Shown here in pieces: positions 4,335 through 46,285 of a stretch of 48,220 nt of DNA. Source of the stretch: an uncultured Thermodesulfobacteriota bacterium (lineage in GTDB: Bacteria > Desulfobacterota > B13-G15 > RBG-16-54-18). Numbering within the stretch: the first letter of the stretch is position 1; each line of letters begins with the position of its first letter. The position numbers were made by a program, and so were the translations under genes. A model generated the notes under the pieces. That model had not been told where the DNA came from, did not search any database, and saw only the letters and a program-made list of their open reading frames with translations. The stretch covers positions 1 to 48,220 of the forward strand of contig CAZMFG010000001.1 in NCBI GenBank assembly GCA_964565525.1, read 5' to 3'.

Positions 4335-4377
4335 CCCCTGCCCCTGTTTGGCTGCGAACAGCGACAACAACCAAGCC

Positions 4378-5718: not shown

Positions 5719-5823
5719 CCCAATAGCTAGTAAGGACTTTTTAAAAACCGTAGTGACTGCCCCCCTCGTGTTTTTCGGTTGCAGTTTTTGTCATCGCCTG
5801 AAGGCTGAAGGCCCTCCTGCCTC

Positions 5824-6513: not shown

Positions 6514-6562
6514 CGCGGATCTCCTTCCATGAGCGATCAGGATCAACTCAAAACATCGTGCC

Positions 6563-7798
6563 TCACGTATGTGCCAGGGCCTCCACCGGGGTGAACCGGG
6601 CCGCCTTCACGGCCGGGTACAGGCTCACCACCAACCCCAAGATGAACACCACCAGGTTGGCCATTAAAACGTCTTGGCCTACGATATGGGGATAGATTAC
6701 CCGGGACATACCCCAATATTCCATGCCCGCGGCGAGCGCAGAGAGGTCGATGCCGGTCCCGGAAAGGACGAGGACACTCAAAAACCCCACCGCATTGCCG
6801 ATGGCCATGCCGAGTATCAAGAGACAGAATGATTCGACGAGAACCCCTCTGACGATCCACCACGGCTTCATGCCGAGAGCCTTGAGCAGACCGAACTCCT
6901 TGATCCGTTCGAACACCGCCATCAACGTGGTGTTCACGATGCCGAATCCCATGGCGATAAAAACGACTAAAAACCACAAGAAGATGAACCAGTCGTATAT
7001 CTTCATGATGGCGGAGACCATGGGGAGGATCTCTTGCCAGGTATTGACTTCATACTCTGCTGCGGGGAGCTCGGCCCGTAAGGTGTCGGCCACATGGTCT
7101 GCCTCGCCGTGCTCGGCAAGGAGGACGACGAACTCGGAGATCCCGTGTGATAACCGCAGCATCTCCTGCGCTGCGGGGAGGGTGACGAAGACGAACTGTT
7201 TCTCCGTGGCCTCCATCTCGGCCCGGTAGACCCCGACGATGCGGAAGGCCCGTGAGGCTATCTCTCCCTCGGTATCTTGGGACATAAGGATCAGCTTGTA
7301 GCCCAAGTGGGTATCGAACCGCTCTGCCAGGGCCTGGCCTACCACAATCCCGTAGGGGTCGTCGGACTTCAGATAGCGCCCCTCCGTAATTGCCCCCCCG
7401 ATGAACGAGACGGCCGCCTCTCGTGGGGGATCGATACCCACCATGGTGACACCGGTGGAGTGCCGGGCATTGCTCGCGATGGCGCTGACTCGAACCCGGG
7501 GGACCCACTGGGCGTCGGGGGGCAGGACTGCGGTGAGGGCGGCCTCCACCCGGGCAGGATTTTCTATGCTGTTCTGGACGGCCGGATCGCTTCGGTACCC
7601 CTTCTCGTGCACCTGGACATGCCCGGTGAGGGTGGCGATGCCGTTGCGGACGAACTGGTCGGCGATCCCCCGCATGAGGGCGCCCAAGAAGATCATGCTC
7701 CAGACCCCGATGACGACCGCCGTCAAGATGACCAGGGTCCTGCGGCGATTGCGCCAGATGTTTCGCCATCCTATTTGCAAAAACATGAAAAAATTCAT
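6563..7798 (-). CDS. ABC transporter permease, FtsX/LolC-LolE-MacB type (copy 2)
   Basis: 411 aa. One N-terminal TM, a large periplasmic loop, then three C-terminal TMs with the FtsX-type motif FERIKEFGLLKALGMKP. Same strand and next to the ATPase. Confidence 0.85.
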   Translation of the reverse strand: MNFFMFLQIGWRNIWRNRRRTLVILTAVVIGVWSMIFLGALMRGIADQFVRNGIATLTGHVQVHEKGYRSDPAVQNSIENPARVEAALTAVLPPDAQWVPRVRVSAIASNARHSTGVTMVGIDPPREAAVSFIGGAITEGRYLKSDDPYGIVVGQALAERFDTHLGYKLILMSQDTEGEIASRAFRIVGVYRAEMEATEKQFVFVTLPAAQEMLRLSHGISEFVVLLAEHGEADHVADTLRAELPAAEYEVNTWQEILPMVSAIMKIYDWFIFLWFLVVFIAMGFGIVNTTLMAVFERIKEFGLLKALGMKPWWIVRGVLVESFCLLILGMAIGNAVGFLSVLVLSGTGIDLSALAAGMEYWGMSRVIYPHIVGQDVLMANLVVFILGLVVSLYPAVKAARFTPVEALAHT

Positions 7799-10961: not shown

Positions 10962-11555
10962 TTACGGATCAGGCGATAATTCTACCCGATCGGCTCTCTT
11001 TTTCTTATAATGATAACGGTGTAACGCCCACAGCAACAAGCCGATGATAACCATTGCCCCGAGAATAATGACTTCATAGTGTTTGATGTCACCGAGTATG
11101 ACCTCCAGCGTATGACCAAAGAGGTATCCGCCGGTCCCGACGACGACGGCCCACACAAAGGCCGCAATGACATCCAAGATGATAAATGTTCTTCTCGACA
11201 CAGAACTCATACCAAATAAAAAAGGTATGATCGTACGCATCCCGTACATAAATCGAAATCCCAGGAGCAGGGGGGTTCGAAACCGTTCCAGGAGCCGATG
11301 GGCCCAATCAATACGGGCCTTCCACAAGGGAAATTTGTCCAGCACCCACTGGGTATGCTTGCGACCGAGATAAAAAAACAACTGGTCACCGCAGAGGCTG
11401 CCGATAAAGGCAGCCAGTATTACCCAGGGCAAGGCCAAATAGCCGCGCTGGGCGGCAAATCCTCCCAACACCAAGATGGTCTCTCCCTCGGTAAAGGTGC
11501 CTACTAAAACAGCCCAATAACCGTAAGTTTCCAGGAAGGATTGGAAGGGAATCAT
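10962..11555 (-). CDS. DedA family membrane protein (paralog 1)
   Basis: 197 aa. YGYWAVLVGTFTEGETILVLGGFAAQRGYL...GDQLFFYLGR...FRFMYGMRTIIPF is the SNARE-associated/DedA pattern. Confidence 0.85.
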   Translation of the reverse strand: MIPFQSFLETYGYWAVLVGTFTEGETILVLGGFAAQRGYLALPWVILAAFIGSLCGDQLFFYLGRKHTQWVLDKFPLWKARIDWAHRLLERFRTPLLLGFRFMYGMRTIIPFLFGMSSVSRRTFIILDVIAAFVWAVVVGTGGYLFGHTLEVILGDIKHYEVIILGAMVIIGLLLWALHRYHYKKKRADRVELSPDP

Positions 11556-13159: not shown

Positions 13160-13786
13160 TTAGGTCAATCGCATCCCTACAATCTTGTTCCTTCCCTTAC
13201 GAACCCTGCGATGATTCAACGTCATTGTTTTAAGTCTTCTGCGCCGATACAAATGCATAAACCAGAGCATCGCACCTATAATAACAACGACACCCAGTAC
13301 TTCGAGTTCATAGTGTTTGATGTCCCCAATAATAATCTCCAGTGCATGGCCAAAGAAATAACCCCCAACGCCCATCGCCAGTGCCCAAGCGAAGGCGCTC
13401 ACGACGTTGAGCATAATGAATATTATGGTAGGTACTCGACTCATGCCAATTACGAAGGGGGTCACCGTCCGCAGTCCGTACATGAAGCGGAAAGAGATAA
13501 TCACCATTGTACGGTAACGTTCTAGCAGCCTCTGCGCTTTATTGACACGCGCTTGCCAGCGCGGATGTTTGGCCAGCATGCCGTGGCTGTGCCACCGACC
13601 GAGATAAAAATAGAGCTGGTCTCCAAATAGCGTTCCGGCAAATGCAGCTAGAATTACCCACGGCAACTGTAAATATCCTTGGTGTGCCGCAAGCCCACTG
13701 AGAATAAGAACGGTCTCACCCTCGAGGAACGTGCCAACGAAGATGGCTACATAGCCATAGGTCTGAATGAGAGATTCTATCGTCAT
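13160..13786 (-). CDS. DedA family membrane protein (paralog 2)
   Basis: 208 aa. YGYVAIFVGTFLEGETVLILSGLAAHQGYL...GDQLYFYLGR...FRFMYGLRTVTPF. By eye it is roughly 55-60% identical to 10962..11555. Confidence 0.85.
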   Translation of the reverse strand: MTIESLIQTYGYVAIFVGTFLEGETVLILSGLAAHQGYLQLPWVILAAFAGTLFGDQLYFYLGRWHSHGMLAKHPRWQARVNKAQRLLERYRTMVIISFRFMYGLRTVTPFVIGMSRVPTIIFIMLNVVSAFAWALAMGVGGYFFGHALEIIIGDIKHYELEVLGVVVIIGAMLWFMHLYRRRRLKTMTLNHRRVRKGRNKIVGMRLT

Positions 13787-27963: not shown

Positions 27964-28055
27964 TTAAGTTCGTCTTTTTGTAACACTCGGTTGGAGTCTG
28001 TATATTTACGGCTCAATCTTCATTGAAGGATCAGCCTTACCAATAATGTTAAGAA
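27964..28055 (-). pseudogene. Relic copy of the 3' end (last ~16 codons, stop, ~42-nt trailer) of a PMM/PGM gene
   Basis: The minus strand reads TGA-KGILNIIGKADPSMKIEP-stop, against the true PMM/PGM C-terminus ..QEVLNIIGKADSSMEVES-stop. In my ungapped hand alignment 75 of 92 positions are identical to 28483..28574, with an offset of exactly 519 nt. Confidence 0.6.
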
Positions 28056-28112
28056 TACCCTTTCACGTTTAGTCATATGTTTGCGGGAGCACTATAACGC
28101 CTATAACAAAGA

Positions 28113-28152
28113 TTAAAAAAGACCGGAGCAAATGTCTATTGGACCTTGGTCT
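28113..28152 (-). terminator. Possible weak intrinsic terminator after the LuxR-type ORF
   Basis: Minus strand: AAGACC..(loop)..GGTCTT followed by TTTTTTAATC. The stem is only 6 bp with a long loop, so this is weak. Confidence 0.3.
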
Positions 28153-28198
28153 TATATGGGGGAAAAGTGGCCGGTGGCACGTGATCAATGATTGCTGT

Positions 28199-28477
28199 CT
28201 ATTCTTTGGTGGGTTTAATGCCCGCCTTCTCGGCCAAGCGGACTAAATCGGCGAGCGAGCCGACGCCAAGCTTCTCAAGGATGCGACCGCGGTGGACCTT
28301 CATCGTCTTCTCGGAGATGCCCAACTCGTACGCAATCTGCTTGTTCAGCATGCCGATGATGACGTAATGAAAGATTTCATATTCGCGCGGGGGGAGCAGT
28401 GCAAGGCGCCCGCGGACCTCATGCACTTCGGCATATTTCACTCTTGCCTGCGTGTCTTGTTCAATCGTCTCCCTCAC
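28199..28477 (-). CDS. LuxR/FixJ-type HTH domain protein (linker + HTH only; possibly a 3' fragment of a response-regulator gene)
   Basis: 92 aa. LPPREYEIFHYVIIGMLNKQIAYELGISEKTMKVHRGRILEKLGV is the GerE/LuxR HTH. There is no receiver domain. The start is a GTG with no Shine-Dalgarno sequence. Sampled lines are about 57-60% GC against about 40-48% in the flanking genes. Confidence 0.55.
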   Translation of the reverse strand: MRETIEQDTQARVKYAEVHEVRGRLALLPPREYEIFHYVIIGMLNKQIAYELGISEKTMKVHRGRILEKLGVGSLADLVRLAEKAGIKPTKE

Positions 28478-28524
28478 CGCTGTTAAGTTAGTCTTTTTGA
28501 AACAATCGGTTGGAAATTATACAT

Positions 28525-29886
28525 CTATGACTCAACCTCCATCGAAGAATCAGCCTTACCAATAATATTAAGCACTTCTTGTTTCTTTTCTTCTTCAGTT
28601 GTTGCGTCGTTCGCTTCCAGATTGAGACGCATGAGGGGCTCTGTGTTGGACGTCCTGAGGTTGAACCACCAGGTATCATATTCTATTGATAATCCATCGA
28701 GATGATCTTTTCTTGCATCGGTATAGTTCGCCTCGAGGGCAGCGAAAACGGCTTCTTTATCCTTTACCTGGATATTGATCTCTCCCGTTGCGTAATATGT
28801 TTGGAGAGGGCGAATCAAGCCTGAGAGCGGCATATTTTTTAAAGATAACAAGTTTAACATCTGAATCATGGTAAAAAGGGCATTGTCGGTAAATCCCATG
28901 TCTTGATAGTAGTAATGCCCGGAAAGTTCGCCGGCAAACAGGGCATTTACTTCTCTCATGGTGGCCTTGATAAAGGCGTGACCTACCCGAGTACGTACCG
29001 CCTTGCCCCCCAGACGGGTAATGGTCTCAGGTACAATGCGGCTTGAACGCAGATCGTAAAGGATTGTTGCCCCTGGCTTCTTTGCTAGGAGGAACTCTGC
29101 AATGAGGGCGGTCACCAGATCCTCAGGGATCCTCTCCCCTTTTTCATCGATAAAGCCGCAACGATCAGCGTCCCCGTCAAATGCCACACCGACATCTGCT
29201 TTTTCCCGACGGACCATGGCCTGCAAATCACGGGTGGCAGCAGGCAGGAGGGGATTGGCAATGTGATGGGGAAAGCTCCCATCCGGTTCCATATAGAGAG
29301 GCACCAGCGTCCAGACGGGAAATTCCTTGAAGAGGGAAAATACCTCAGGCCCGGCCATACCATTTCCCGCATCCACCACAATTTTTAAGGGCTTTGGGTT
29401 GTGGACAAAGCTGCTGAGTTTTGCGATATATTTCTCTGACATATCGAGTTCCTGATAAGAACCATCTGTCGGATGACTTCGCTGTACAGGCAGCTTTTCA
29501 ATAACCAAACGTTCCAGCTCGGGCAGCCCCCGGTCTCCGCTCAAGGGGATGGCCTCTTCCCGGCAGAGCTTTAAGCCGTTCATCCCGCCGGGGAGATGGG
29601 ACGCCGTCACCATGGCTCCACCGTCAAACCGCCCTGCGATGATAGCATAATAGAGCAAAGGGGTGGTGACCATCCCGATATCGGTGACCGCGGCCCCTGA
29701 TGCGACAGCTCCTTCTATAAAGGCCTTGGCAAGCGCTGAGGCAGAAAGCCGCATATCGCGACCGATAACAATGTTCTTGGCATTGAGTAAGCGGACAAAG
29801 GCAGCCCCGATTTTCCTTGCCATCACCTCATCTAATTCATCGGGATAAGAGCCCCGGATATCGTAGGCCTTAAAAATACCTCCCAT
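28525..29886 (-). CDS. Phosphomannomutase/phosphoglucomutase
   Basis: MGGIFKAYDIRGSYPDEL start, TASHLPGGMNGLK active-site serine loop, DGDADRCGF metal loop and GELSGHYYY. Start moved from 30012 to the ATG at 29886: GGAGGC lies upstream, 11 nt after the glgP stop, and this removes a 115-nt overlap with glgP. Confidence 0.9.
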   Translation of the reverse strand: MGGIFKAYDIRGSYPDELDEVMARKIGAAFVRLLNAKNIVIGRDMRLSASALAKAFIEGAVASGAAVTDIGMVTTPLLYYAIIAGRFDGGAMVTASHLPGGMNGLKLCREEAIPLSGDRGLPELERLVIEKLPVQRSHPTDGSYQELDMSEKYIAKLSSFVHNPKPLKIVVDAGNGMAGPEVFSLFKEFPVWTLVPLYMEPDGSFPHHIANPLLPAATRDLQAMVRREKADVGVAFDGDADRCGFIDEKGERIPEDLVTALIAEFLLAKKPGATILYDLRSSRIVPETITRLGGKAVRTRVGHAFIKATMREVNALFAGELSGHYYYQDMGFTDNALFTMIQMLNLLSLKNMPLSGLIRPLQTYYATGEINIQVKDKEAVFAALEANYTDARKDHLDGLSIEYDTWWFNLRTSNTEPLMRLNLEANDATTEEEKKQEVLNIIGKADSSMEVES

Positions 29887-35272: not shown

Positions 35273-35301
35273 TTGACTCACCTCCGGCGAAGATATATAT
35301 T
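35273..35301 (+). promoter_or_regulatory. Sigma-70-type promoter candidate for the DUF362/polyferredoxin genes
   Basis: TTGACT (35273..35278), 17 nt, TATATT (35296..35301). AAGGAGAG RBS precedes the ATG at 35327. Confidence 0.45.
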
Positions 35302-35326
35302 TAAAGTAACTTAAGAAAGGAGAGAG

Positions 35327-36241
35327 ATGTCAAAGCTGACACGCAGAGAGTGGCTGAAGCTGACCATGGCCGGCGCCGGGGCGGCCCTAGCCCCCTGGCC
35401 GTGGAGGACGTTTGCCTCTGCCGCAACCGCACCCCCTCCCGACCTAGTCATCTCTCACGGGACATCACCTGCCCTGATCACGGAGGCGGCCCTACAGGCC
35501 CTGGGCGGCATGAACCAATTCGTCTCCCGCGGGGATGTGGTCTTGGTGAAGCCAAACATCGCGTGGGACCGCACCCCTGAGCAGGCCGCCACCACCAATC
35601 CGGAGGTGGTGGCAACGCTGGTGCGTGTATGCCTCACGGCCGGTGCCAAGGAGGTGAAGGTCTTCGACTACCCCTGCGAGGATGCCCGCCGCAGCTATGT
35701 GCGCAGCGGGATCATGGAGGCGGCCAAAGGGGCGGGAGCAAAGGTCAGCTATGTCGACGAGAGACGGTTCCGCAAGATGGACCTCAAGGGGGAGGCCCTC
35801 CAGGACTGGGAGGTCTATAAGGAGGCGGTAGAAGTAGATAAGATAATCAACTGTCCCATCCTCAAGCACCACAGCCTGGCCCGGCTCACCATGGGGATGA
35901 AGAACCTCATGGGTCTGATCGGCGGCGACCGTTCGCGGCTCCACTGGCACCTCGATCAGGCCATCGTGGATCTCGCCGCCTTCTTCAAGCCGACCTTGGT
36001 CGTCCTGGATGCAGTGAGGATATTGACGGCCAACGGTCCACAGGGGGGGAGCCCGAAGTATGTCAAACAGCTCAATACCGTGGCGGCAGGGGTGGATCAG
36101 GTGGCCGTCGACGCCATGGGGGCAAAGCTCTTCGGCCTGCCGCCCGAGGAAATGGAGCACCTCCGCATCGCCTCCAAGCGGGGCCTGGGGCGCATGGACC
36201 TGGGGAAGCTGAGGATTAAGGAGGTCCAGACCAATTCCTAA
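35327..36241 (+). CDS. Tat-signal DUF362 domain protein
   Basis: 304 aa. Twin-arginine leader MSKLTRREWLKLTMAGAGAALAPWPW..ASA. The body (VLVKPNIAWDR...PEVV..L...KHH..A..T...KNLMG...DR...H) matches my memory of DUF362. Confidence 0.7.
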   Translation: MSKLTRREWLKLTMAGAGAALAPWPWRTFASAATAPPPDLVISHGTSPALITEAALQALGGMNQFVSRGDVVLVKPNIAWDRTPEQAATTNPEVVATLVRVCLTAGAKEVKVFDYPCEDARRSYVRSGIMEAAKGAGAKVSYVDERRFRKMDLKGEALQDWEVYKEAVEVDKIINCPILKHHSLARLTMGMKNLMGLIGGDRSRLHWHLDQAIVDLAAFFKPTLVVLDAVRILTANGPQGGSPKYVKQLNTVAAGVDQVAVDAMGAKLFGLPPEEMEHLRIASKRGLGRMDLGKLRIKEVQTNS

Positions 36242-36455
36242 GGCTAAAGGTAAGCGGCAATCCTCCCCCTTTCCATGGTGGCGGCTGAGACGCATCAGTC
36301 AGTGGTCCTTCCTGGCGCTCTTTCTCTGCCTCTTCATCCTGACGGCCTACAAGGGGACGGATGAGATCGCCTATCCCGTCCGTATCTTCCTGCACTTTGA
36401 TCCCTTAATCCTCATCACGACCTTCCTCTCATCCCATGGTATTCCCCTAGCCCTC

Positions 36456-37817
36456 TTGTTATCCCTTATCACGGTCTCCTTCACCCTCGTCTTCGGCAGG
36501 GTTTTCTGCGGGTGGGTCTGCCCCCTGGGGACGTTGAACGACTTCATGGGCCGCCTCACCCCCAAGGAACGGAGAAAAAAGCACCTGGGGGATCGGGCAC
36601 GCAGGCTCAAGTACTACGGCCTCATTGTCATCCTCGTCAGCTCCCTCTTCACCCTGCAGATAGCCGGGCTGGCGGACCCCATCTCGCTGCTGATCCGCTC
36701 CCTGGCCGTGGCCGCAGAGCCCGCCGTGAACCTGATGACCCATACCGTCTTCGACCTCCTCTACCGCGCCGATATCCCCGTGGTCACCGCAATCTCCGAG
36801 GCCATCTATGCCGTTCTCAAAAAATATATCTTGGCCTTTCATCAACCCTTCTTCTATCAGGGGATCTTTATCGGCCTCATCTTCGCAGCTATCCTCCTCG
36901 CCAACCTCTATCGGCGCCGTTTCTGGTGTAACGCCCTCTGTCCCCTCGGGGCCCTGCTGGGGCTCATTACCCAGATCAGCCCCTTCAAGAGGGTCGTAGG
37001 AAAGGGCTGCACTTCCTGCAACCTCTGTGTGCGGGAGTGCCGCACCGGCGCGGCAGCGGACGTGAAAGGGAAGTGGCAAAAGACGGAGTGTGTGATGTGC
37101 GGCGAGTGTCAGGAGGACTGCCCCGAGGATGCGGTGAGGTTCGGTTTTCTCCCCGCCAAGGCGGGAAAGGTTACAGGGGTCGATCTGGGGCGGCGCGGGG
37201 TGATCGCCTCCCTGGTCACCGGGATCTTTATCGTCCCTCTTATGCGAACCAACCCCCTCACGCAACGACGAACGGGGCGGCTGATCCGCCCCCCCGGCGC
37301 CCTGCCGGAGGATGAATTCCTGCGCCGATGCGTGCGCTGCGGTGAGTGCATGAAGGTCTGCCTCACCAACGGACTCCAACCCGCCCTCTTCGAGGCAGGA
37401 CTGGAGGGGATCTGGACCCCCCGCTTCGACTTCCACAGCGGCTACTGCCAATACTACTGCACCCTCTGCGGTCAGGTATGCCCCACCGGCGCCCTCAGGG
37501 AGCTCTCCCAGGAGGAGAAGGCCGGCACCAAGATCGGTCTCGCCTATATCGACAAGAACCGCTGTATCCCCTATGCACAGGGGGTCGAGTGTCTGGTGTG
37601 CGAGGAGCACTGCCCCACGCCGGACAAGGCCATCAAGTTCGAGCAGGTAGAGACAATGACCCCCCGGGGGAGAAAACTGATCAGACGTCCGGTGATAGAC
37701 CTCAAGCTTTGCATCGGCTGCGGGATCTGCGAATACAAGTGCCCGCTGCACGACCAGCCCGCCATCATCTGCACCCGCCTCGGAGAATCCAGGGCGGACG
37801 AGCTGCTGCCTTTTTAA
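36456..37817 (+). CDS. Membrane-bound polyferredoxin, NapH/MauN/CcoG-like, about six [4Fe-4S]-type motifs
   Basis: Two CxxxCP membrane-domain motifs (CGWVCPLG, CNALCPLG). Six ferredoxin-type cysteine clusters (CTSCNLCVREC, CVMCGECQEDCP, CVRCGECMKVC, CTLCGQVCP, CLVCEEHCP, CIGCGICEYKCP). The coordinates follow the track (TTG start), but the frame is open and protein-like back to 36213 (see finding). Confidence 0.85.
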   Translation: MLSLITVSFTLVFGRVFCGWVCPLGTLNDFMGRLTPKERRKKHLGDRARRLKYYGLIVILVSSLFTLQIAGLADPISLLIRSLAVAAEPAVNLMTHTVFDLLYRADIPVVTAISEAIYAVLKKYILAFHQPFFYQGIFIGLIFAAILLANLYRRRFWCNALCPLGALLGLITQISPFKRVVGKGCTSCNLCVRECRTGAAADVKGKWQKTECVMCGECQEDCPEDAVRFGFLPAKAGKVTGVDLGRRGVIASLVTGIFIVPLMRTNPLTQRRTGRLIRPPGALPEDEFLRRCVRCGECMKVCLTNGLQPALFEAGLEGIWTPRFDFHSGYCQYYCTLCGQVCPTGALRELSQEEKAGTKIGLAYIDKNRCIPYAQGVECLVCEEHCPTPDKAIKFEQVETMTPRGRKLIRRPVIDLKLCIGCGICEYKCPLHDQPAIICTRLGESRADELLPF

Positions 37818-37858
37818 CCCTGAATATTCAATAAAGGCCCTTGTTCTGCCGAAATAGC

Positions 37859-37941
37859 GAGGGGCTTTCCCCTCATCTTCCTCTGTAGAGGAAGCACCCA
37901 TGCGGCAACCCTCCCCCTGAAAGATTAAAAAAATTTAATCT
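37859..37941 (+). other. Three consecutive perfect stem-loops downstream of the polyferredoxin gene (the first may act as a terminator)
   Basis: GAGGGG-cttt-CCCCTC (37859..37874). CTTCCTC-tgta-GAGGAAG (37877..37894). AGATTAAA-aaaa-TTTAATCT (37922..37941). None is followed by a clear T-tract. Confidence 0.55.
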
Positions 37942-38005
37942 CCCGTTAATGGGCCTTTAATCTTCATCGAGTATACTAGTGTTCAAAAGAGAGGCGAGGA
38001 AGCGG

Positions 38006-38266
38006 ATGTATTTCAAGTTGGTGATGGAAGGGGGTCATGTCGGGGCGGGGAAGAGTTATGAGATGGTGCGGTATTTTCAGGGCAACGATATCTTCGCCAT
38101 CCTCGCCGGGACCCGTTCTATCCCTCGCTTGAAGAAAAAGAGGTTCGGTGGGGGCATCAAGCTCATCAAGGAGATCTCCTGGGGAGAATATCTCACCGGC
38201 AAAGGGAGAGAGAAAAGAGATCCTTATCTCAACCCAAGCGCTCCTTCTGCCATGGTCCCCGCGTGA
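38006..38266 (+). CDS. Small hypothetical protein (86 aa from the ATG; the track starts it at GTG 37979)
   Basis: MYFKLVMEGGHVGAGKSYEMVRYFQGNDIFAILAGTRSIPRLKKKRFGGGIKLIKEISWGEY... GAGGAAG lies 3-4 nt upstream of the ATG at 38006. No family recognised. It sits between the two copies of the polyferredoxin 3' end. Confidence 0.45.
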   Translation: MYFKLVMEGGHVGAGKSYEMVRYFQGNDIFAILAGTRSIPRLKKKRFGGGIKLIKEISWGEYLTGKGREKRDPYLNPSAPSAMVPA

Positions 38267-38387
38267 CAGATATCATCAGGTTCTTTGCGTAAAACCACCC
38301 GTCCTACTGGCGTGAGAGGAGATGTCCTTAGATTCTAGGTTTGGCTTATGAGGCCTTAAAATCTAAGGGCGCCCCTCACGTCGGACC

Positions 38388-38469
38388 GACCAGCCGCCAT
38401 CATCTGCTCCCGCTTCGGAGAATCACAGCCAGAGGAACTGCTACCTGTTAAACCCCCAATAGTTAGTAA
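38388..38469 (+). pseudogene. Relic copy of the 3' end of a polyferredoxin gene (frameshifted)
   Basis: Aligns with 37752..37834. It reads ..AIICSRFGESQPEELLP against the true ..AIICTRLGESRADELLPF-stop. About 65 of 82 aligned positions are identical by hand, with one 1-nt gap (gaccagcc-gcc) that breaks the frame. Weaker similarity extends upstream to about 38365. Confidence 0.55.
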
Positions 38470-38783
38470 TCCAAGTGCCGTCCATCAGCACGAAGAAGGG
38501 AAAAACCTTTTCTCCCTTTCTCTTTTTCCTTTCCCCATCGGCTAGCTGTGAGGTCCCAGCCCCATCGTGGAGAGGGTGGGGGTGAGGAAGATATGACTAT
38601 GACTTGCCCCCACATCTTCATCCCCTCCAGAGGAGAGGTATGTGCTTATTGTTTAAGTAATGTATTTAACCATTAGGAATTTTCGGCCAAGCTTTTTTTC
38701 GACCCTCTCTCCATCTTGCCCAAATCTAACCGCCCGCAATACTTAAACTTTTTAAATTTTTGTCAAATTTTTTAAAATTCCTC

Positions 38784-38850
38784 TTGACAAATAAACTTAA
38801 CATGTACTATATGTTGTGGTACAGAATTTGGACAATACAATATATTATGT
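38784..38850 (+). promoter_or_regulatory. nrdD promoter candidate with two NrdR-box-like sites
   Basis: An A/T-rich UP-like tract lies upstream. TTGACA (38784..38789) and a -10-like TACTATAT (38805..38812). Box 1 GTACTATATGTTGTGG (38804..38819) and box 2 ATACAATATATTATGT (38835..38850) match the 16-bp NrdR palindrome acaCwAtATaTwGtgt at about 11 and about 13 positions. The box starts are 31 bp apart (three helical turns), the usual tandem arrangement. Confidence 0.5.
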
Positions 38851-38923
38851 AATTAAACAATTAAATCACATGTCATTCAACCACTAAATCATAGAAACCA
38901 ACAAGGGGAAGGGGTGGGAAATC

Positions 38924-41071
38924 ATGATTTCGGTCATTGATATCAGAGAGAGAAAACTGGATAACGCCCTCGGTGATACCACCGATATGGCCCTGTTCGT
39001 GCGCACCTCCGAGGAGAGCTTGCAAGGATGGGACCGTCAGCGGATCGTCGATGCCCTGATGCGGGAGACCTATATCGACCCCGATACCGCAGAGGCCGTC
39101 AGCCAGGAGGTGGAGGATATCATCAGGAAGAGCGACATCAGCATGGTGACCGCCCCCCTCATCAGGGAACTGGTGGATGCCAAGCTCATCGAGCGGGGCA
39201 TGGAAGAGACCCGCAAGCAGCATACCCGGCTCGGTATGCCGCTGTATGACGTCAATCAACTGATCATGCACCCCAACAAGGAGAACGCCAACGTCCCCCA
39301 CGGCCCCGAGGCCACCAACCTGACCTTGGCCGAGACCATCAAAAAGGAGTACGCCCTCCTGCATGTCTTCTCCGAGGAGGTGGCCGACGCCCACATGCGC
39401 GGGGATATCCATCTGCACGACCTGGGGTTCATCGACCGTCCCTATTGCAGCGGTCAGTCCCTGGAATATATCAAGAAGTTCGGGCTCAACCTCCCCAACT
39501 CCCTCTCCATGGCCAAGCCCGCCAAGCATCCGGAGGTGCTGTTGGCCCATATGGTGAAATTCGCCGCGGGCCTCCAGAGCCATTTCGCCGGTGCCATTGG
39601 GTGGGATGCGATCAACCTCTTCTTCGCCCCCTACCTCGTGGGGATGGGGGATAGGGAGGTCAAGCAACTGGCCCAGATGCTCATCTTTGAGTTCTCGCAG
39701 CAGGCCGTGGCCCGCGGGGGACAGGCCATCTTCACCGACATCAACCTCTACTGGGAGATCCCCAAGCATTTTAGAGACGTCCCGGCCATCGGGCCCAATG
39801 GGGAGTTCACCGGCAAGACCTATAAAGATTATCTGCAGGAGGCCCAGCGCTTCGTGTGGGCCCTCTTCGACGTCTACCAGGAAGGGGACGGAGCAGGGCG
39901 CCCCTTCTTCTTCCCCAAACCCCTGGTCCACATCACCGAGGACTTCTTCAGGGCACCGGGTCACGAGCGATTCCTCAACCATATCTGTGCCATCGCCTCG
40001 GAAAAGGGCAATACGTACTTTGTCTTCGACCGGGGGGAGACTGCCAAGATATCTGAGTGCTGCAGGCTGAGTTTTAAGCTTGAGGCCTCGGACCTGGAGG
40101 ACGCCAAGCAGCCGTGGAAGATGCGCTACAGCGCCCTGCAGAATGTCACCCTCAACCTCCCCCGTATCGGGTATATATCAGAGGGTGACGACACCAAACT
40201 CTTTGAGAAGGTCTCCCATTTCATGGAGCTGGCTGTCAGAGCCCACCTGGAGAAGAAGAGCTTCTTAGAACGGCTCCTCTCCCTGGGGGACGAGGGCCCC
40301 CTGGCCCTGCTGACCATGAACCAAGACGGGGAGTCGTATCTCCGGATGCACCGGGCCACCTACCTTATCGGCATGGTGGGGCTCAATGAGATGGTAAAGG
40401 CCCACACCGGCCAGGAGATGCACGAATCCAAGGAGGCCTTTAAATTCGGTTTACAGGTGATCGCTCAGATGAAGCTCCTGGCCGACAAGATGAGCAAGCG
40501 GTTCGGGATGCGATTCGTCTTGGAACAGACGCCGGCGGAGAGTACCGCCTATCGGTTCGCCAAGCTGGATATGCGGTTTCACTCCCCCCAAGCCGGTCAC
40601 ATCATCAAGGGTGACATCGCCCGCGGGGAAGTCTATTACACCAATTCCACCTATCTGAGCGGTGACGCCGTAATGAACCCCATCGAACGGGTAAGACAGG
40701 AGGGACTCTTTCATCCCCTTATCGATGCCGGCTCCCTCACCCATATCTGGCTGGGGGAATCAAGGCCCTCACCGGAGTCATTGGCCAACTTCGTGACCAA
40801 GACGTTTCAGCTGACCCAGAACGACCAGATCGCCTTTTCACCGGAGTTCACCACGTGCAACAATTGTGCGCGCACAGCCAGGGGCCTAATGGACCAGTGC
40901 CCTTACTGCGGCTCCGGTGATGTGGATGGTATCACCCGCATCACCGGCTACTTCACCAAGATCTCCAGTTGGAACAAGGGGAAGCTGGGGGAATTGCGGG
41001 ACAGGTATCGCAATGAGGCCTTTATCAAAAAGAGGCCGGATGGTGATAAGCAGGACCAGATTACCGTGTGA
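38924..41071 (+). CDS. nrdD: Anaerobic (class III) ribonucleoside-triphosphate reductase
   Basis: 715 aa. N-terminal ATP-cone-like segment (WDRQRIVDALMRETYIDPDTAEAVSQEVE). C-terminal zinc site CNNCARTARGLMDQCPYCG and glycyl-radical motif TRITGYFTKISSWNKGK. Confidence 0.95.
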   Translation: MISVIDIRERKLDNALGDTTDMALFVRTSEESLQGWDRQRIVDALMRETYIDPDTAEAVSQEVEDIIRKSDISMVTAPLIRELVDAKLIERGMEETRKQHTRLGMPLYDVNQLIMHPNKENANVPHGPEATNLTLAETIKKEYALLHVFSEEVADAHMRGDIHLHDLGFIDRPYCSGQSLEYIKKFGLNLPNSLSMAKPAKHPEVLLAHMVKFAAGLQSHFAGAIGWDAINLFFAPYLVGMGDREVKQLAQMLIFEFSQQAVARGGQAIFTDINLYWEIPKHFRDVPAIGPNGEFTGKTYKDYLQEAQRFVWALFDVYQEGDGAGRPFFFPKPLVHITEDFFRAPGHERFLNHICAIASEKGNTYFVFDRGETAKISECCRLSFKLEASDLEDAKQPWKMRYSALQNVTLNLPRIGYISEGDDTKLFEKVSHFMELAVRAHLEKKSFLERLLSLGDEGPLALLTMNQDGESYLRMHRATYLIGMVGLNEMVKAHTGQEMHESKEAFKFGLQVIAQMKLLADKMSKRFGMRFVLEQTPAESTAYRFAKLDMRFHSPQAGHIIKGDIARGEVYYTNSTYLSGDAVMNPIERVRQEGLFHPLIDAGSLTHIWLGESRPSPESLANFVTKTFQLTQNDQIAFSPEFTTCNNCARTARGLMDQCPYCGSGDVDGITRITGYFTKISSWNKGKLGELRDRYRNEAFIKKRPDGDKQDQITV

Positions 41072-41089
41072 TGAGGAGGTTATGTAAGA

Positions 41090-41350
41090 ATGGGCTCAAT
41101 CAAGATCTTTACCAAAAACGAGTGCCCCAAGTGCCCCGCGGCTAAGGAGATTGGCGGCATCCTGCAACAGGAGGGTCTCCCGGTCACCTTTTATGACCTT
41201 GAGACCCCTGATGGCCTCGCCGAGGGCGCCTTTTACAGCGTGCTGTCTACCCCCACTATCATCATCGAAGATGAGCATGAAAAAATTCTCGCGGGGTGGC
41301 GGGGATCGGTTCCCACCCTGCAAGAGATCGAGGGATTGATTAGGGCATGA
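41090..41350 (+). CDS. Small thioredoxin/glutaredoxin-fold protein (CPKC active site)
   Basis: 86 aa. KIFTKNECPKCPAAKEI ... VLSTPTIIIEDE (cis-Pro region). Located between nrdD and nrdG, overlapping the nrdG start by ATGA. Confidence 0.75.
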   Translation: MGSIKIFTKNECPKCPAAKEIGGILQQEGLPVTFYDLETPDGLAEGAFYSVLSTPTIIIEDEHEKILAGWRGSVPTLQEIEGLIRA

Positions 41351-42105
41351 TGGAAGCGATAACACACGCAGGCGTATCGCTACCGCAAGAAGGAACCCGG
41401 CGGCAAGGCGTTCAGGAAACCATCAGCATCAGGGGCTTCCTGGAGACCTCCTTTGTGGATTGGCCCGGCAAGGTGGCCTCGATGCTCTTTTTGCCGGGGT
41501 GCAACTTTCGGTGCCCCTTCTGTCACAACCACCAACTGGTCTTAGATCCAGGAGGCCTTGAGGATATCCCCCGCGCGCATATCATGGCCCGCCTGGCCGA
41601 GCTGAAGGGGTGGGTGGATGGTGTGTGCATTTCCGGGGGGGAGCCTACCATCCACCCCCACCTTCCCTCCCTCATGGTCGAGATCAAAAGTGCCGGGTTG
41701 CTCGTCAAGCTCGATACCAACGGAAGCCGCCCCGAGATACTGCGGTCTCTGCTGGAAAGAGGCCTGCTAGACTGCGTGGCCATGGACGTCAAGGCCCCCC
41801 TCGACGAGGTGAAATATGCCAGGGCAGCGGGAGTGCCCGTGGACCTGGAGAAGATACGCGAGAGCATCTGTTTACTGAAAAAAGGAAAGGTTGACTATCA
41901 CTTCAGAACTACTATTGTCCCAGCCCTCCACAAGGAGGAGGACCTGCTCCACATAGCCCGCCACCTGAGCGGGTCCTCCTCCTTGACCCTCCAAAACTTC
42001 AACCCGGAGGACCCGCTTGATCCCACATTGAAGGGGACCTCCCCGTACACCGAAGAGTGGCTACAGGAGATGAGGGAACGAATCGCCTCGATCCTCCATC
42101 ACTAA
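41347..42105 (+). CDS. nrdG: Anaerobic ribonucleotide reductase activating protein (radical SAM)
   Basis: 252 aa. FVDWPGKVASMLFLPGCNFRCPFCHN (CxxxCxxC), GVCISGGEPT and KLDTNG. Confidence 0.9.
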   Translation: MMEAITHAGVSLPQEGTRRQGVQETISIRGFLETSFVDWPGKVASMLFLPGCNFRCPFCHNHQLVLDPGGLEDIPRAHIMARLAELKGWVDGVCISGGEPTIHPHLPSLMVEIKSAGLLVKLDTNGSRPEILRSLLERGLLDCVAMDVKAPLDEVKYARAAGVPVDLEKIRESICLLKKGKVDYHFRTTIVPALHKEEDLLHIARHLSGSSSLTLQNFNPEDPLDPTLKGTSPYTEEWLQEMRERIASILHH

Positions 42106-42122
42106 GATCCGCACGAAGTACC

Positions 42123-42151
42123 TTGCCATTTGCCCTCAATATTATTATAGT
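42123..42151 (+). promoter_or_regulatory. Sigma-70-type promoter candidate upstream of PPC-hsp20-lon
   Basis: TTGCCA (42123..42128), 17 nt, TATAGT (42146..42151). Confidence 0.35.
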
Positions 42152-42188
42152 ATACTAAAATCGGCATAGAGTCCACAGAATACTTCAG

Positions 42189-42632
42189 GTGCACGTAAGG
42201 GATACCTATCTCATCAGATTGCCCCAGGGAAAGGACCTGGCGGAGGCTGTGACGCAAGAGTGTCGGCACAGGGGGATACAGATGGGGGTTGTGTCGGTGA
42301 TCGGGGCGGTACAGGGGGCTACCATCGGATACTACGATCAAAGTGAGAGGGTCTATCGGAGCAGACATATCGACGGTGGCTTGGAGATCGCCTCTTGTCA
42401 CGGGAACATCACTCTCAAGGACAGCGCTGTCATGGTCCACGCCCACATCATCCTCGCCGACGCTGAAGGTAACACCTATGGAGGGCACCTTATGTCTCCG
42501 ACCACCCTGTTCGCCGGAGAGGCCCATATACAGGAACTGGAAGGGAAACCCCTGGAGCGGGAATACGATGGGACGACCGGTCTCTTTCTGTGGCGGGAAG
42601 AGGACGATACGGAGGTCGGCACCGAGGGGTAA
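42189..42632 (+). CDS. PPC (DUF296) domain protein
   Basis: 147 aa. YLIRLPQGKDLAEAVTQECRHRGIQMGVVSVIGAVQGATIGYYD...EIASCHGNITLKD...VHAHIILADAEGNTYGGHL matches the PPC/DUF296 pattern. GTG start without a clear RBS, so the start is uncertain. Confidence 0.65.
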   Translation: MHVRDTYLIRLPQGKDLAEAVTQECRHRGIQMGVVSVIGAVQGATIGYYDQSERVYRSRHIDGGLEIASCHGNITLKDSAVMVHAHIILADAEGNTYGGHLMSPTTLFAGEAHIQELEGKPLEREYDGTTGLFLWREEDDTEVGTEG

Positions 42633-42665
42633 GCACCATCGAAACCAGAGGAGGAAAACGCACAC

Positions 42666-43115
42666 ATGTTCAAAGAAGCAGACGAACTTTTTGAGAGATT
42701 GAGAAACGTACATCTCCAGGCGGAACGGCATTTCTTTTCGCTGTTGGTCCCCAGCAAAGTCCATCCCACGGCAGAGGGTAAGTGGCAACCCCTGGCCGAT
42801 GTCTACGAGACGGATGCGGCCTGGGTGATCAAACTGGAGCTTGCCGGAGTGCGCAAGGGGGATTTCTCCGTCACCGCCAACGAGGGGATCGTGACCATCA
42901 AAGGGACCAGGAGAGATGAGTTCGAGGGGGAGTGGCGCACCTATCATCAGGCCGAGATCAACTACCATGAGTTCGAGCGCAGCTTTCCCCTGCCGAAAGG
43001 AACCGATACAGGAGATATCTCTGCCCTGTACAAAAATGGTCTCCTGACCATCACCATCACGAAGCGCTCCACCCCTCCCCGCGAGCGAAAAACAATAACC
43101 ATTACCATTACCTAA
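42666..43115 (+). CDS. Hsp20/alpha-crystallin family small heat-shock protein
   Basis: 149 aa. PLADVYETDAAWVIKLELAGVRKGDFSVTANEGIVTIKGTRRDE...FERSFPLPKGTDTGDISALYKNGLLTITITK. GAGGAGG RBS. Confidence 0.9.
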   Translation: MFKEADELFERLRNVHLQAERHFFSLLVPSKVHPTAEGKWQPLADVYETDAAWVIKLELAGVRKGDFSVTANEGIVTIKGTRRDEFEGEWRTYHQAEINYHEFERSFPLPKGTDTGDISALYKNGLLTITITKRSTPPRERKTITITIT

Positions 43116-43125
43116 CGGTGAACCA

Positions 43126-45537
43126 ATGGACGAACGAAAAGAAGAGGCCCAAACGGAAATCCTTGGGATAAGCGACGAAGGGGAAGCACCCAAGATTCCT
43201 CCGGAGCTCCCTCTCCTGCCCATGGAGGATATGGTCATCTATCCCCACACCTTGGTCCCCCTCATTCTCAAGGACCCGCAGCTCGCCGCCGCTGTCGACG
43301 AGGCCCTCTCCCATGAGCGCATCGCCGGGGCCGTGATGCTCAAAGATCGAGAGAAAAAGGAATTCCACTCAACGGGGTCGGCCATCCTTATTCATAGGAT
43401 GTTGAAAAACCCCGACGGCACCTTGCGCATGATAACACAGGGGTTGGCCAAGATCGGTATCACCAAGATAATTCAGGAAGATCCCTTTCCCAAGGCACAG
43501 GTGCAGGTGTTGGAGGAACGGCCGGAGCAGAACGAACGCGTGGAGGCCCTCATGCGGGCCGTCATGGGCCAGTACCAGAAGATGATCACCCTCGTACCCT
43601 ACATCCCCGATGAGCTTCAGGCGGCTGCCATGAACATAGAAGACCCCTTCCGACTGGTCTACTTCATCGCCACCTTCATCAAGATGAAGCCTGAGGACAA
43701 ACAGGAGATACTCGACCTGGAATCCGCCGAGGAAAAATTGAAAAAGATCTCCTCCATCCTGCAACGAGAGGTGGATCTCTTGGAGCTGGGCACCAAGATC
43801 CAGTCCGAGGTCCAGGACAAGATGACGAAGGGGCAACGTGAGTACGTCCTCCGCGAGCAGCTCAAGGCCATTAAAAAGGAGCTGGGTGAAGAGGACGAGC
43901 TCCAGGTTGAGATCAAGGAGTTCCGCGAAAAGATGGAGGCCGCAAACCTCCCCGAGCACGTGGAGAAAGAGGCCGAGCGGGAGCTCGCCCGCCTCGAGAA
44001 GATCCCTACCGCCTCTCCCGAATATGGGGTCATCAGGACCTATCTGGAGTGGCTGACCGAGCTCCCCTGGAGCCGGGAGACGGCGGACAATATGGACTTG
44101 GACCGGGCACAAAGGATCTTGGACGAAGACCACTACGACCTCGATAAGATCAAGGAGAGGATTCTCGAGTACCTGGCGGTGAGAAAGCTCAAGGAGGATA
44201 TGAAAGGCCCCATCCTCTGTTTTGTCGGCCCCCCGGGGGTGGGGAAGACCTCCCTCGGGCAATCCATCGCCCGGACTTTGGAGAGGAAATTCGTGAGGCT
44301 CTCCCTCGGAGGGGTACGGGATGAGGCGGAGATCCGGGGGCATCGGCGGACGTATATCGGGGCCCTGCCGGGGACGATCATCCAGAGCATCCGCAGGGCG
44401 GAATCACGCAATCCGGTCTTCATGCTCGATGAAATCGATAAAGTGGGGGCCGATTTCCGCGGCGACCCCTCCTCCGCCCTCTTGGAGGTCCTCGACCCGG
44501 AGCAGAATGCCGCCTTTCGGGACCACTATCTCGACATCCCCTTTGACCTCTCCCAGGTCTTTTTCATCACCACCGCCAATATGCTGGAGACCATCCACCC
44601 CGCCCTGCGGGACCGGATGGAGGTCTTGATGCTCCCCGGCTATACCAACCATGAGAAGGTCGCCATCGCCCAACGATATCTCATCCCCAAGCAGACGGAC
44701 GCACACGGCTTGGAGAAGGAAGAGGTGCGTTTTACCGACGAGGGGATCCAAAAAATCATCTCCTCCTATACCAAAGAGGCCGGGGTGAGAAACCTGGAAC
44801 GGGAGATCGCGAGGGTCTGCCGCAAGGTGGCCTTCAAGAAGGGACAGGGGCAGCATACCGGGGATGTCATCACCCCGGATGCACTGCGGGAGTACCTGGG
44901 GCCCGAGCGGCACTTTCCCGAGGTGGCCATGCGTACCTCCCGTCCCGGCGTGGCCACCGGTTTGGCCTGGACCGAGGCAGGAGGCGAAATCCTCTTCGTC
45001 GAGGCGACGAAGATGCCGGGCAAAAAGGGGCTCTCCCTCACCGGGCAATTGGGGGAGGTGATGCAGGAGTCGGCCAAGGCGGCCCTGAGCTATGTGCGTG
45101 CCAAGGCAGGCGAACTGGGGATCGCGAAGGACTTCTTTGAAAAGTACGACCTGCACATCCACGTCCCCGCCGGCGCCATTCCCAAGGATGGACCCTCAGC
45201 GGGGATCACCGTCGCCTGCGCCGTGGCCTCCGAGCTCACCGGGCGCCCGGTGAGGAACGATGTGGCCATGACCGGTGAGATCACCCTCAGCGGCCTCGTA
45301 CTCCCGGTGGGGGGGATCAAAGAGAAGATCCTGGCGGCCAAGGCAGCGGGAATCAAGAAGGTGATCCTCCCGGCCCGCAACCGGGGGGATGTGGAGGAGA
45401 TCGGCGAGGAGCTGAAGGGGGGGCTGGAGTTCGTCTTTGTGGAGTCGGTTGACGAGGTCTTCCCGTTGGCCTTGACCGACTCCGTCGGAAAAAGCAAGGC
45501 CTCTCCCAAGCGGAGACCGGCGAAGGGTTCACGATAG
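43126..45537 (+). CDS. lon: ATP-dependent Lon protease (LonA)
   Basis: 803 aa. N-terminal LON substrate-binding domain ([21 protein letters not shown]), Walker [10 protein letters not shown], and protease active-site [11 protein letters not shown] with the downstream Lys region [14 protein letters not shown]. Confidence 0.97.
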
Positions 45538-45541
45538 CACC

Positions 45542-46285
45542 ATGTCCCTGCAAGAAATAAACATCAAGAGGCAGGCCGAAGGCCTGGAGCGTAACCTGAA
45601 GGGGATCCTCCACCTCCTCGAGGACAAATATAGTGAACTTCAGCAGTTGTGCCGGGTCTTTAACCCGAAGCGGGGCTACTCCCCAACGGCGGTCAGGGAC
45701 ATCAAGGAACTATACAAGATGGCCACTGCCAAATTCGCCGAGGCCAGGGCCTTGCAGCAGGTAATCAGGGGCAAATACCGGGGGTATGTGCAGGTCGATG
45801 CACAGGTACAAAGGGCATTGGACGAGTTCTCCCTCATGTACCGGAAGGACTACCGCTTCTTTGAACAAAATCACAGCACGTGGCAACGGGAACAATATGG
45901 GCGGGAGGAAAAGAGGGTGCCTCCCCGCGTCCTCTCCCATCTTTACACGGTCTATCGAGAATCACCAGCCCTCCCCTCCCTCATCCTCTGTTTTCAGGGC
46001 GACCCTTCTTCCTTAAAAACGCTCAAAGATCGGGTCCAGCTGGGGGAACGGGACATGTGGGATGCGGTGGAGGGGGAGTTGTGGCTTTTCATGGCGGGGG
46101 TACAACACTCAGAGGATCCCCAGCTCAAGGGCACGCTTATCGAGACCCTCCTGTACGATCTGAAGGGGAAAGTCAAGGGGGTGGTCTTAAAGCTCACCAC
46201 GGGGGATGCGGTGCGGGATGAGACCCTGCAGGGCATGCGCCGAAGCCTCGCCGCGGTCCCGGCGGGGGAGATCAAGATCCTGTAA
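45542..46285 (+). CDS. Hypothetical protein, tightly linked to lon
   Basis: 247-aa ORF starting 4 nt after the lon stop (TAGCACCATG). The N-terminal part is coiled-coil-like. No family recognised. Its 3' end overlaps the convergent rlmN by 14 nt. Confidence 0.55.

Follow-up and report, generated by a model that had tools for sequence, protein, structure and literature searches.

How does a small gene come to stand between the intact end of another gene and a worn copy of that same end? This question is raised by a locus near 37.8 kb in DNA of an uncultured Thermodesulfobacteriota bacterium (GenBank assembly GCA_964565525.1, contig CAZMFG010000001.1, positions 1 to 48,220). The whole stretch of 48,220 nucleotides (nt) was analysed and is referred to below as the window; related loci are labelled L001 and so on. 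At this locus the 3' end of a polyferredoxin gene recurs downstream, and the two copies enclose an open reading frame (ORF) for a protein of 86 amino acids (aa) together with several hairpins. A first-pass annotation, made from the sequence letters alone, had described the block as a cassette-like insertion and had proposed a recurrent process that targets gene 3' ends. We found that the observation is real but looks like an ordinary kind of genome scar left by illegitimate recombination, not like a new mobile element. The best explanation, to which we assign a probability of about 0.55, is a microhomology-mediated templated insertion with a long target duplication, carried out without a mobile element.

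The repeated polyferredoxin gene end

A direct-repeat search aligned positions 37759-37834 with 38394-38469 (76 nt, ungapped, 78% identical, spacing 635), and a self-BLAST of the whole window gave a slightly longer match of 37751-37834 to 38387-38469 (84 nt, 78.6%, E value of 7.8e-12). Both searches confirm that the end of the polyferredoxin gene recurs about 636 nt downstream, as the first-pass annotation had reported. The downstream copy had also been described as broken in frame by a 1-nt gap; no gap is needed, and the relic reads in a single frame through 32 codons from position 38360 (NLRAPLTSDRPAAIICSRFGESQPEELLPV...), with only the stop codon lost. The 17 mismatches between the copies hit all codon positions and are divided into 8 transitions and 9 transversions, a pattern that fits a dead fragment decaying neutrally. 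The relic itself is without function.

The interpretation of the block as an insertion is carried by comparison with relatives, which turned up an uninterrupted site. In L028 (polyferredoxin 87% and NrdD 90% identical at the amino-acid level), the polyferredoxin gene is followed by the gene for NrdD after 277 nt, without the small gene. The window matches L028 over 35273-37834 and then again from 38805 on (86% between window positions 38805-41500 and L028 positions 5021-7719). The downstream copy runs on into the original NrdD upstream region, and the comparison supports the view that it is the gene's own first end, displaced by the insertion and still joined to the old spacer between polyferredoxin and NrdD. 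Mis-assembly, which had been named as a way in which the structure might prove spurious, is ruled out as the same structure was recovered in independent assemblies, L001 and L116, both of which carry the insert and an orthologous relic.

The relatives were also used to estimate how far the duplication originally reached. The trailer of the left copy is colinear with the uninterrupted L028 spacer up to ~37885, a segment that includes the first of the hairpins and corresponds to the first 70 nt of that spacer (0 of 2000 shuffles), and the same spacer also runs colinear with the sequence after the relic in L001 (again 0 of 2000 shuffles). Within the window alone the downstream extension of the repeat is not significant (757 of 2000 shuffles) and is visible only via relatives. 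A weak upstream extension had been noted in the first pass; it finds support in L116, where 16 of the 21 nt that precede the relic core agree with the gene (a score equalled by 23 of 3000 shuffles), but in the window alone the extension to ~38360 is not significant. It is probably real. On the basis of the colinearity with the L028 spacer and the upstream match in L116, the duplicated target would originally have measured ~150 nt (37732-37885 and 38360-~38525), and the inserted DNA ~0.5 kb. The parts of the locus are as follows.

36456..37817, plus strand: polyferredoxin gene, intact (Pfam Fer4_5, Fer4_7 and Fer4)
37732..37885, plus strand: left copy of the putative duplicated target, with the last 28 polyferredoxin codons, the stop at 37815-37817 and a 68-nt trailer; well-matched core at 37751-37834, terminator-like hairpin at 37859-37874
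37877..37894, plus strand: junction hairpin, perfect, 7 bp, its 3' arm overlapping the start of the kinase relic
37890..37920, plus strand: histidine-kinase relic of 31 nt, with the last ~10 codons and the stop TGA at 37918-37920
37922..37979, plus strand: predicted promoter/operator with a palindrome, three boxes and a -10-like element, conserved across family loci
38006..38266, plus strand: small gene for the 86-aa protein, a member of a conserved family without a name
38263..38296, plus strand: 5' relic of a B12-binding radical S-adenosylmethionine (radical-SAM) gene, first ~11 codons
38301..38390, plus strand: long imperfect hairpin of ~36 pairs (90 nt), folding energy -45.8 kcal/mol, z -2.7
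38360..~38525, plus strand: right copy, a decaying relic with in-frame polyferredoxin codons, lost stop, trailer and a degenerate terminator-like hairpin at 38495-38520; well-matched core at 38387-38469
38924..41071, plus strand: NrdD, anaerobic ribonucleotide reductase (Pfam NRDD and ATP-cone), the original downstream neighbour

The insert is common to at least four related lineages, and insert and long hairpin occur together in L001, L112 and L116. The orthologous relic of L116 still ends in TAA; in L112 the relic has been lost, and L002 retains only its first ~20 nt before an unrelated operon. Orthologs of the polyferredoxin at 82-94% amino-acid identity were found in L001/L027, L002, L028, L029 and L011, and the gene is preceded in the window by a DUF362 gene at 35327-36241.

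Two further observations concern the gene end and its relatives. At codon 37771-37773 of the polyferredoxin tail the window, L027, L029, L112 and L116 have TGC (Cys), and L001, L002, L011 and L028 have GTC or GTT (Val). The codon differs between L001 and L027 despite 95% identity across the region, and the relics read TGC or TGG at this place (38406-38408 in the window relic). This alternation of Cys and Val suggests gene conversion between relic and gene end, or allele exchange. Separately, a MazE/PemK (MazF) pair stands exactly at the left joint, between the polyferredoxin trailer and the small-gene promoter, in L001 (609-2038) and L029 (947-1693); the two versions are orthologous with 84% nucleotide identity, and the pair is absent from the window, L002, L112 and L116.

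The small gene and its origin

The 86-aa ORF, the three perfect hairpins and the long hairpin were all present as first described. The ORF had been judged to belong to no known family, which stands for named families, as no match was found in Pfam, NCBIfam, PHROGs, PADLOC or a sequence search of the PDB, but does not hold for unnamed ones: more than 138 homologs with 63-93% identity occur in metagenome bins of Deltaproteobacteria/Thermodesulfobacteriota, none of them named, and 105 clusters among 1.84 billion representatives match the protein. The small gene belongs to this family by similarity over its whole length and by its triple-box promoter. The ratio of nonsynonymous to synonymous substitution rates (dN/dS) of 0.16 against L001 and 0.21 against L008 indicates that the gene is functional and under purifying selection. 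An AlphaFold (AF2) model with a predicted local distance difference test score of 68 and a beta-beta-alpha-beta-alpha order had no significant Foldseek neighbour in the PDB.

A search for homologs and their genomic contexts, as had been proposed, identified a home operon. In the commonest context (at least 10 loci) a response regulator, a histidine kinase, the small gene (78 aa) and an HtrA protease follow one another. In a second context (L008 and L114) the 86-aa form lies directly before a B12-binding radical-SAM gene, with stop and start overlapping. The third context, behind DUF362 and polyferredoxin, is found in the window, L001, L002, L011, L029, L112 and L116. A stub of the kinase gene always accompanies the 86-aa form, and the copies linked to polyferredoxin carry a stub of the radical-SAM gene as well. 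These two stubs indicate that the small gene was copied in two steps, first out of the home operon to the radical-SAM site and then on to the polyferredoxin site, with pieces of its neighbours dragged along each time.

Both stubs can be read in the window. At the home locus the kinase precedes the small gene, and the kinase relic of the window (GGAAGCACCCATGCGGCAACCCTCCCCCTGA) aligns with kinase 3' ends (GGGGAGCACCTTTACGGTGACCCTCCCCCTGA). The radical-SAM relic scored 17.5 against 9.6 +/- 1.5 for shuffled sequences (2 of 2000 shuffles), in an alignment that includes 10 nt of the ORF end; it is far clearer in L116, where ATGATCAGATACAGCCAGGTTCTTGTCCTAAAACC faces GTGATCAAGTACCAGCACGTTCTTGCCCTCAATCC of L008. 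The first pass had called the block cassette-like; a cassette of a mobile-element family is not supported here, the cargo being a paralog of a chromosomal gene with relics of its former neighbours.

Between the kinase relic and the small ORF lies the predicted promoter. An alignment of the region upstream of the ORF with 15 related loci (16 family loci in all) shows the palindrome AGATTAAAAAAATTTAATCT at 37922-37941, three TTTAATC-like boxes (37934-37962) with a spacing of 11 nt that vary little or not at all among the aligned loci, and a -10-like TATACT within 37971-37979. The window has the triple box at this one place, and none of 100 shuffles has it. Sites of the OmpR/PhoB type repeat seven conserved and four variable bases every 11 nt and replace the -35 element. 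The regulator of the home operon has the domains Response_reg and Trans_reg_C, and we infer that the triple boxes are a binding site of this OmpR-type regulator.

The three perfect hairpins, at 37859-37874, 37877-37894 and 37922-37941, are the terminator-like stem of polyferredoxin (within the duplicated target), a junction stem and the promoter/operator palindrome, and not the ends of an element. The long hairpin, found in the window, L001, L002, L112 and L116, is of another kind: its 3' arm, from ~38360, is probably derived from polyferredoxin, and its 5' arm is the inverted complement of that arm. Across three sequences, 10 of its pairs vary on one side yet still pair, and no compensatory double changes were seen. 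Searches of the hairpins against Rfam returned nothing at the gathering threshold and only chance-level matches at E<=1. Neither the window nor 774 kb of related loci contains a second copy of the long hairpin or of the junction sequences.

Two side observations bear on this family. Distant members of ~160 aa (P0365, P0375 and P0380) carry a C-terminal PilZ domain (30.2 bits for P0365 against a cutoff of 22.5), and these fusions, together with the two-component/HtrA operon, hint at a possible link to envelope-stress or cyclic di-GMP signalling. L026, from a bin that also holds the home copy L010, contains at 4001-4420 a truncated small gene (first ~49 codons, without promoter) that is fused directly behind the gene of a receiver-only regulator and continues into a DUF1214-like fragment, a fusion also present in P0364. 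A 98-nt direct repeat (4324-4419 versus 4848-4945, 72%) lies near this copy, which is another junction scar in the small-gene family.

Proposed mechanism, the sister event and the rival explanations

In the insertion that we favour, chromosomal DNA of the organism's own kind, ~0.5 kb long, would have entered the junction between polyferredoxin and NrdD, bringing the small gene, a regulator-dependent promoter and the stubs of two genes that flanked its earlier sites. About 90-150 nt of the target, from ~85 nt inside polyferredoxin to just past the terminator-like hairpin, would have been duplicated, with the left copy keeping polyferredoxin whole and the right copy left as a useless, decaying fragment. 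The joining would have occurred by microhomology-mediated illegitimate recombination, either as a template switch during replication with a return to the original template ~150 nt behind the departure point, or as fill-in repair of a staggered break. At the right joint the long hairpin, which probably serves as the 3' end of the small gene, may have arisen from a fold-back inverted copy of the target. Expression of the inserted gene would be driven by the promoter that came with it, probably controlled by the home operon's OmpR-type regulator.

A second locus in the window has the same layout and, in keeping with the earlier description, is supported as an independent event with a different donor. 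Its parts are given in one line.

27964..28572, minus strand: sister event, with the end of the PGM gene and its trailer (28483-28572), an insert of 431 nt (28050-28480) and a PGM relic (27964-28053)

The PGM end is repeated over 90 nt (82%, E value of 7e-19). In the relatives L107 and L109, whose GAPDH is 92% and 88% identical, PGM and GAPDH are adjacent, with spacers of 338 and 263 nt and without the insert. The enclosed ORF at 28199-28477, first taken for LuxR, matches only positions 118-201 of the 203 positions of the FixJ model and shares 74% identity with residues 124-210 of a regulator that is full-length in L026. In the nucleotide alignment, window positions 28480-28050 are ~85% identical to L026 3110-3596 (regulator region 2744-3596), a span that begins inside the regulator gene and passes through a terminator-like stem and a spacer up to the start codon of the next gene. 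The insert was copied from an L026-like donor and comprises the final third of a FixJ-type response-regulator gene together with its downstream spacer. Each joint can be read with 4 nt shared by donor and target, GCGG on the left and CTTA on the right. A comparison of the ends of the two inserts, at 28 and 37.8 kb, found no shared terminal motif. In L111, a decayed version of the 28-kb piece is ~100 nt longer, reaching into the next (receiver-only) gene, and lacks a PGM relic.

At both sites the inserted DNA is a copy of sequence from the same kind of genome, as seen from the kinase and radical-SAM relics and from the match of the 28-kb insert to L026; the donor locus of the genome from which the window comes is not within the window. 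Neither an integrase nor a transposase nor a reverse transcriptase was found in 26.9-47.9 kb or in the related contexts, and no recombinase or relic of one was found in the filled sites of the window, L001, L002, L029, L112 and L116, where an enzyme acting in trans from elsewhere in the genome is conceivable. A targeting of gene 3' ends, as first proposed, need not be invoked. In the best reading, the location at gene ends reflects which insertions survive selection, because a gene stays whole when the duplication spans its stop codon, whereas an event inside a gene would be lethal to it; survival of this kind suffices, and L011 shows a case at a 5' end. There, the first 49 nt of the B12-binding radical-SAM gene are duplicated (4269-4317 versus 4408-4456, 86% identical), the copies are separated by 90 nt with a TATAAT-like motif, and the upstream copy overlaps the small-gene stop in the way that the true start does in L008 and L114. 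This duplication is the 5'-end mirror image of the structure in the window.

Several points weigh against a simple insertion. The copies at 37.8 kb are 22% diverged; the event is old, and microhomology therefore cannot be read at these joints to the base. The evidence for a fold-back origin of the long hairpin is one marginal alignment, and the left overlap GCGG of the 28-kb event is read in the left copy alone, the relic copy having AAGG. In L011 and L029 the small gene lies behind polyferredoxin with other neighbours, and a recombination of two pre-existing arrangements would fit these loci as well as a simple insertion does. Synonymous divergence (dS) of polyferredoxin from the window is 0.22 for L027, 0.43 for L002, 0.49 for L116, 0.63 for L028 and L112 and 0.97 for L011, with 0.45 between L028 and L116, and the matrices for polyferredoxin, DUF362 and NrdD form a mosaic in which the empty-site L028 sits among insert-bearing lineages. 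The empty site of L028 may accordingly be a never-inserted allele kept by recombination, an exchanged allele or the result of a later precise loss via the repeats.

These points lead to an alternative that we regard as possible though unlikely, namely a recombination that joined a polyferredoxin-small gene-radical-SAM arrangement like that of L011 with a polyferredoxin-NrdD arrangement like that of L028. The joint would be illegitimate, between the radical-SAM start and a point ~85 nt before the polyferredoxin stop, and could have been reached by homology-facilitated illegitimate recombination after DNA uptake from a relative or by deletion between two polyferredoxin copies; the apparent target duplication would be a by-product of the position of the joint. 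All three arrangements do exist among the relatives, the radical-SAM 5' relic stands right behind the small gene in the window, the deepest-branching L011 already has the small gene behind polyferredoxin and, as noted, L028 is nested among insert-bearing lineages. However, the divergences of NrdD, polyferredoxin and DUF362 between the window and L028 are not markedly different (dS of 0.52, 0.63 and 0.63), and the divergence between the copies (Jukes-Cantor distance of ~0.26, with a large error on 76 nt) is about that of neutral decay since the split of the window from L002 if the copies began identical. The 28-kb case, with its donor in an unrelated regulator locus, is also left unexplained by such a recombination.

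Element-based readings fare less well. A site-specific integrative element that entered at the polyferredoxin 3' end, brought a replacement end and decayed to a remnant bounded by attL and attR is in our judgement very unlikely. An intact end followed by an insert and a repeat of the gene end is the classic island layout, as exemplified by PAISt at the 3' end of bacA (PMC4057263); an empty site exists in L028, and toxin-antitoxin pairs such as the MazEF pair at the left joint of L001 and L029 are common island cargo. But the six filled versions hold no integrase or relic, the repeats are 84-150 nt long with the terminator included, the cargo, with its stubs of former chromosomal neighbours, is paralogous to a resident gene, and the insert at 28 kb consists of a piece of a regulator gene and can be read with microhomology at both joints. 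An origin from a cDNA of the small-gene transcript, captured in the patching of a break and possibly joined by a template switch onto the 3' end of the polyferredoxin mRNA, is highly improbable. The left target copy ends just after the terminator-like hairpin, where the mRNA would end, both inserts are oriented as their flanking genes, and the 28-kb insert is a 5'-truncated gene piece with a terminator-like stem and T-run behind the regulator gene; a preprint reports a role in break repair by microhomology-mediated end joining for bacterial group II intron-like reverse transcriptases (bioRxiv 10.1101/2022.03.14.484287). Against this, no reverse transcriptase gene lies in 26.9-47.9 kb, the insert holds promoter DNA and could be transcribed solely if transcription of the kinase gene read through into it, and the 28-kb insert extends ~75 nt beyond its terminator-like stem, to the start of the next gene.

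For a diversity-generating retroelement, or an integron cassette with an attC hairpin, the probability is practically nil, the resemblance being limited to a superficial layout in which a gene end is repeated after a small ORF and the ORF is followed by a long hairpin. The mismatches are not adenine-specific (A at 6 of 17 in the downstream copy and at 3 of 17 in the gene copy), the repeat passes through the stop codon and the terminator, the next gene encodes NrdD and no RVT domain was found in 26.9-47.9 kb. The sequences on either side of the hairpin at 38301-38390, ...CCACCCGTCC and GGACCGACC..., contain no RYYYAAC/GTTRRRY cores, and the hairpin has no Rfam match; no integron integrase occurs in 26.9-47.9 kb, and the ORF has its own conserved promoter/operator. 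An insertion sequence or miniature inverted-repeat transposable element was also rejected: no terminal inverted repeats were found around the insert, the duplication measures 84-150 nt compared with 2-15 bp, and the hairpin and junctions have no further copies.

Are such scars unusually frequent? The window has two of this kind and L011 and L026 have one each, which makes four in ~60 kb of closely related sequence. A scan of 14 family loci for flanking gene-end repeats found none besides the orthologous L001 relic and the 5'-end repeat of L011, and a survey of direct repeats in 774 kb of fetched loci gave ~1 short repeat per 40 kb, a figure that does not establish an excess; many of these repeats looked intragenic and were not inspected singly. 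We hold it to be improbable that an active, lineage-specific copy-and-paste process operates in these uncultivated Thermodesulfobacteriota, through a reverse transcriptase or through template switching at stalled forks or terminators. If it did, it would repeatedly insert transcribed segments of 0.1-0.5 kb with target duplications of 50-150 nt and seed new paralogs that carry their own promoters.

Other repeats were seen in the course of these searches. Three pairs in the 48 kb have E values below 1e-3: the polyferredoxin-end pair, the 28-kb pair and a pair at 11070-11507 and 13304-13741 (64% identical over 438 nt). The last of these falls in ORFs 10962-11555 and 13160-13786, both on the minus strand, and presumably represents paralogous genes. 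Two unrelated metagenome loci also have long direct repeats. In L081 a perfect repeat of 92 nt (276-367 and 1135-1226) brackets a DUF362 gene, and in L105 a repeat of 188 nt (4817-5004 and 5862-6047, 90% identical) lies just downstream of a polyferredoxin homolog. Elsewhere in the window, two palindrome-like boxes (ACTATATGTTGTGGT and ACAATATATTATGT, 38806-38850) upstream of nrdD are conserved in L028, L112 and L116 and resemble NrdR boxes. The long ORFs 42102-43238 (minus strand) and 45542-46285 (plus strand) have no Pfam match; the former may be a shadow ORF, and it overlaps a region with plus-strand PCC and HSP20 genes in L001.

Comparison with known systems

A literature search found the island-integration pattern and templated insertions in eukaryotes, and nothing on the small-protein family or on bacterial inserts with target duplications of ~100 nt. 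Current ideas are unchanged by this locus, and its value is descriptive: it would be an unusually legible fossil of a small regulated gene spreading without a mobile element, in which each move left a stub of the previous neighbour, such that the path can be read from the scars. It also suggests that gene-end relics around small inserts need not mean site-specific integration. By-products of the analysis are a protein family without a name (78-86 aa), linked to a two-component/HtrA operon, and a well-defined candidate operator of three TTTAATC boxes 11 nt apart.

Genomic islands, integrative and conjugative elements and cis-mobilisable elements at gene or tRNA 3' ends share with this locus the bounds of direct repeats that include a gene end, the empty site and, in two relatives, the MazEF pair. 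They differ in that here no recombinase was found, the insert is 0.5 kb long, the repeats measure 84-150 nt and the cargo is a resident paralog with stubs of its neighbours. The likeness to diversity-generating retroelements and integron cassettes lies in layout alone, as their defining features are missing. Homology-facilitated illegitimate recombination in natural transformation usually deletes recipient DNA rather than duplicating it. One end anchored in polyferredoxin homology, with an illegitimate joint at the other, would explain the mosaic distribution, but not the 28-kb insert, the donor of which has no homology to its target. Insertions by template switching or end joining, as known from fork stalling and template switching (FoSTeS), microhomology-mediated break-induced replication (MMBIR), microhomology-mediated end joining (MMEJ) and bacterial quasipalindrome strand switching, are described mostly from eukaryotes or from laboratory mutants of bacteria, unlike the old, fixed and natural events considered here, which are reconstructed from their scars. 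They resemble the present case in the copied DNA, the target duplication and the lack of an element-borne enzyme, and further likenesses are the possible 4-nt microhomology at the 28-kb joints and the possible inverted fold-back at one of the 37.8-kb joints.

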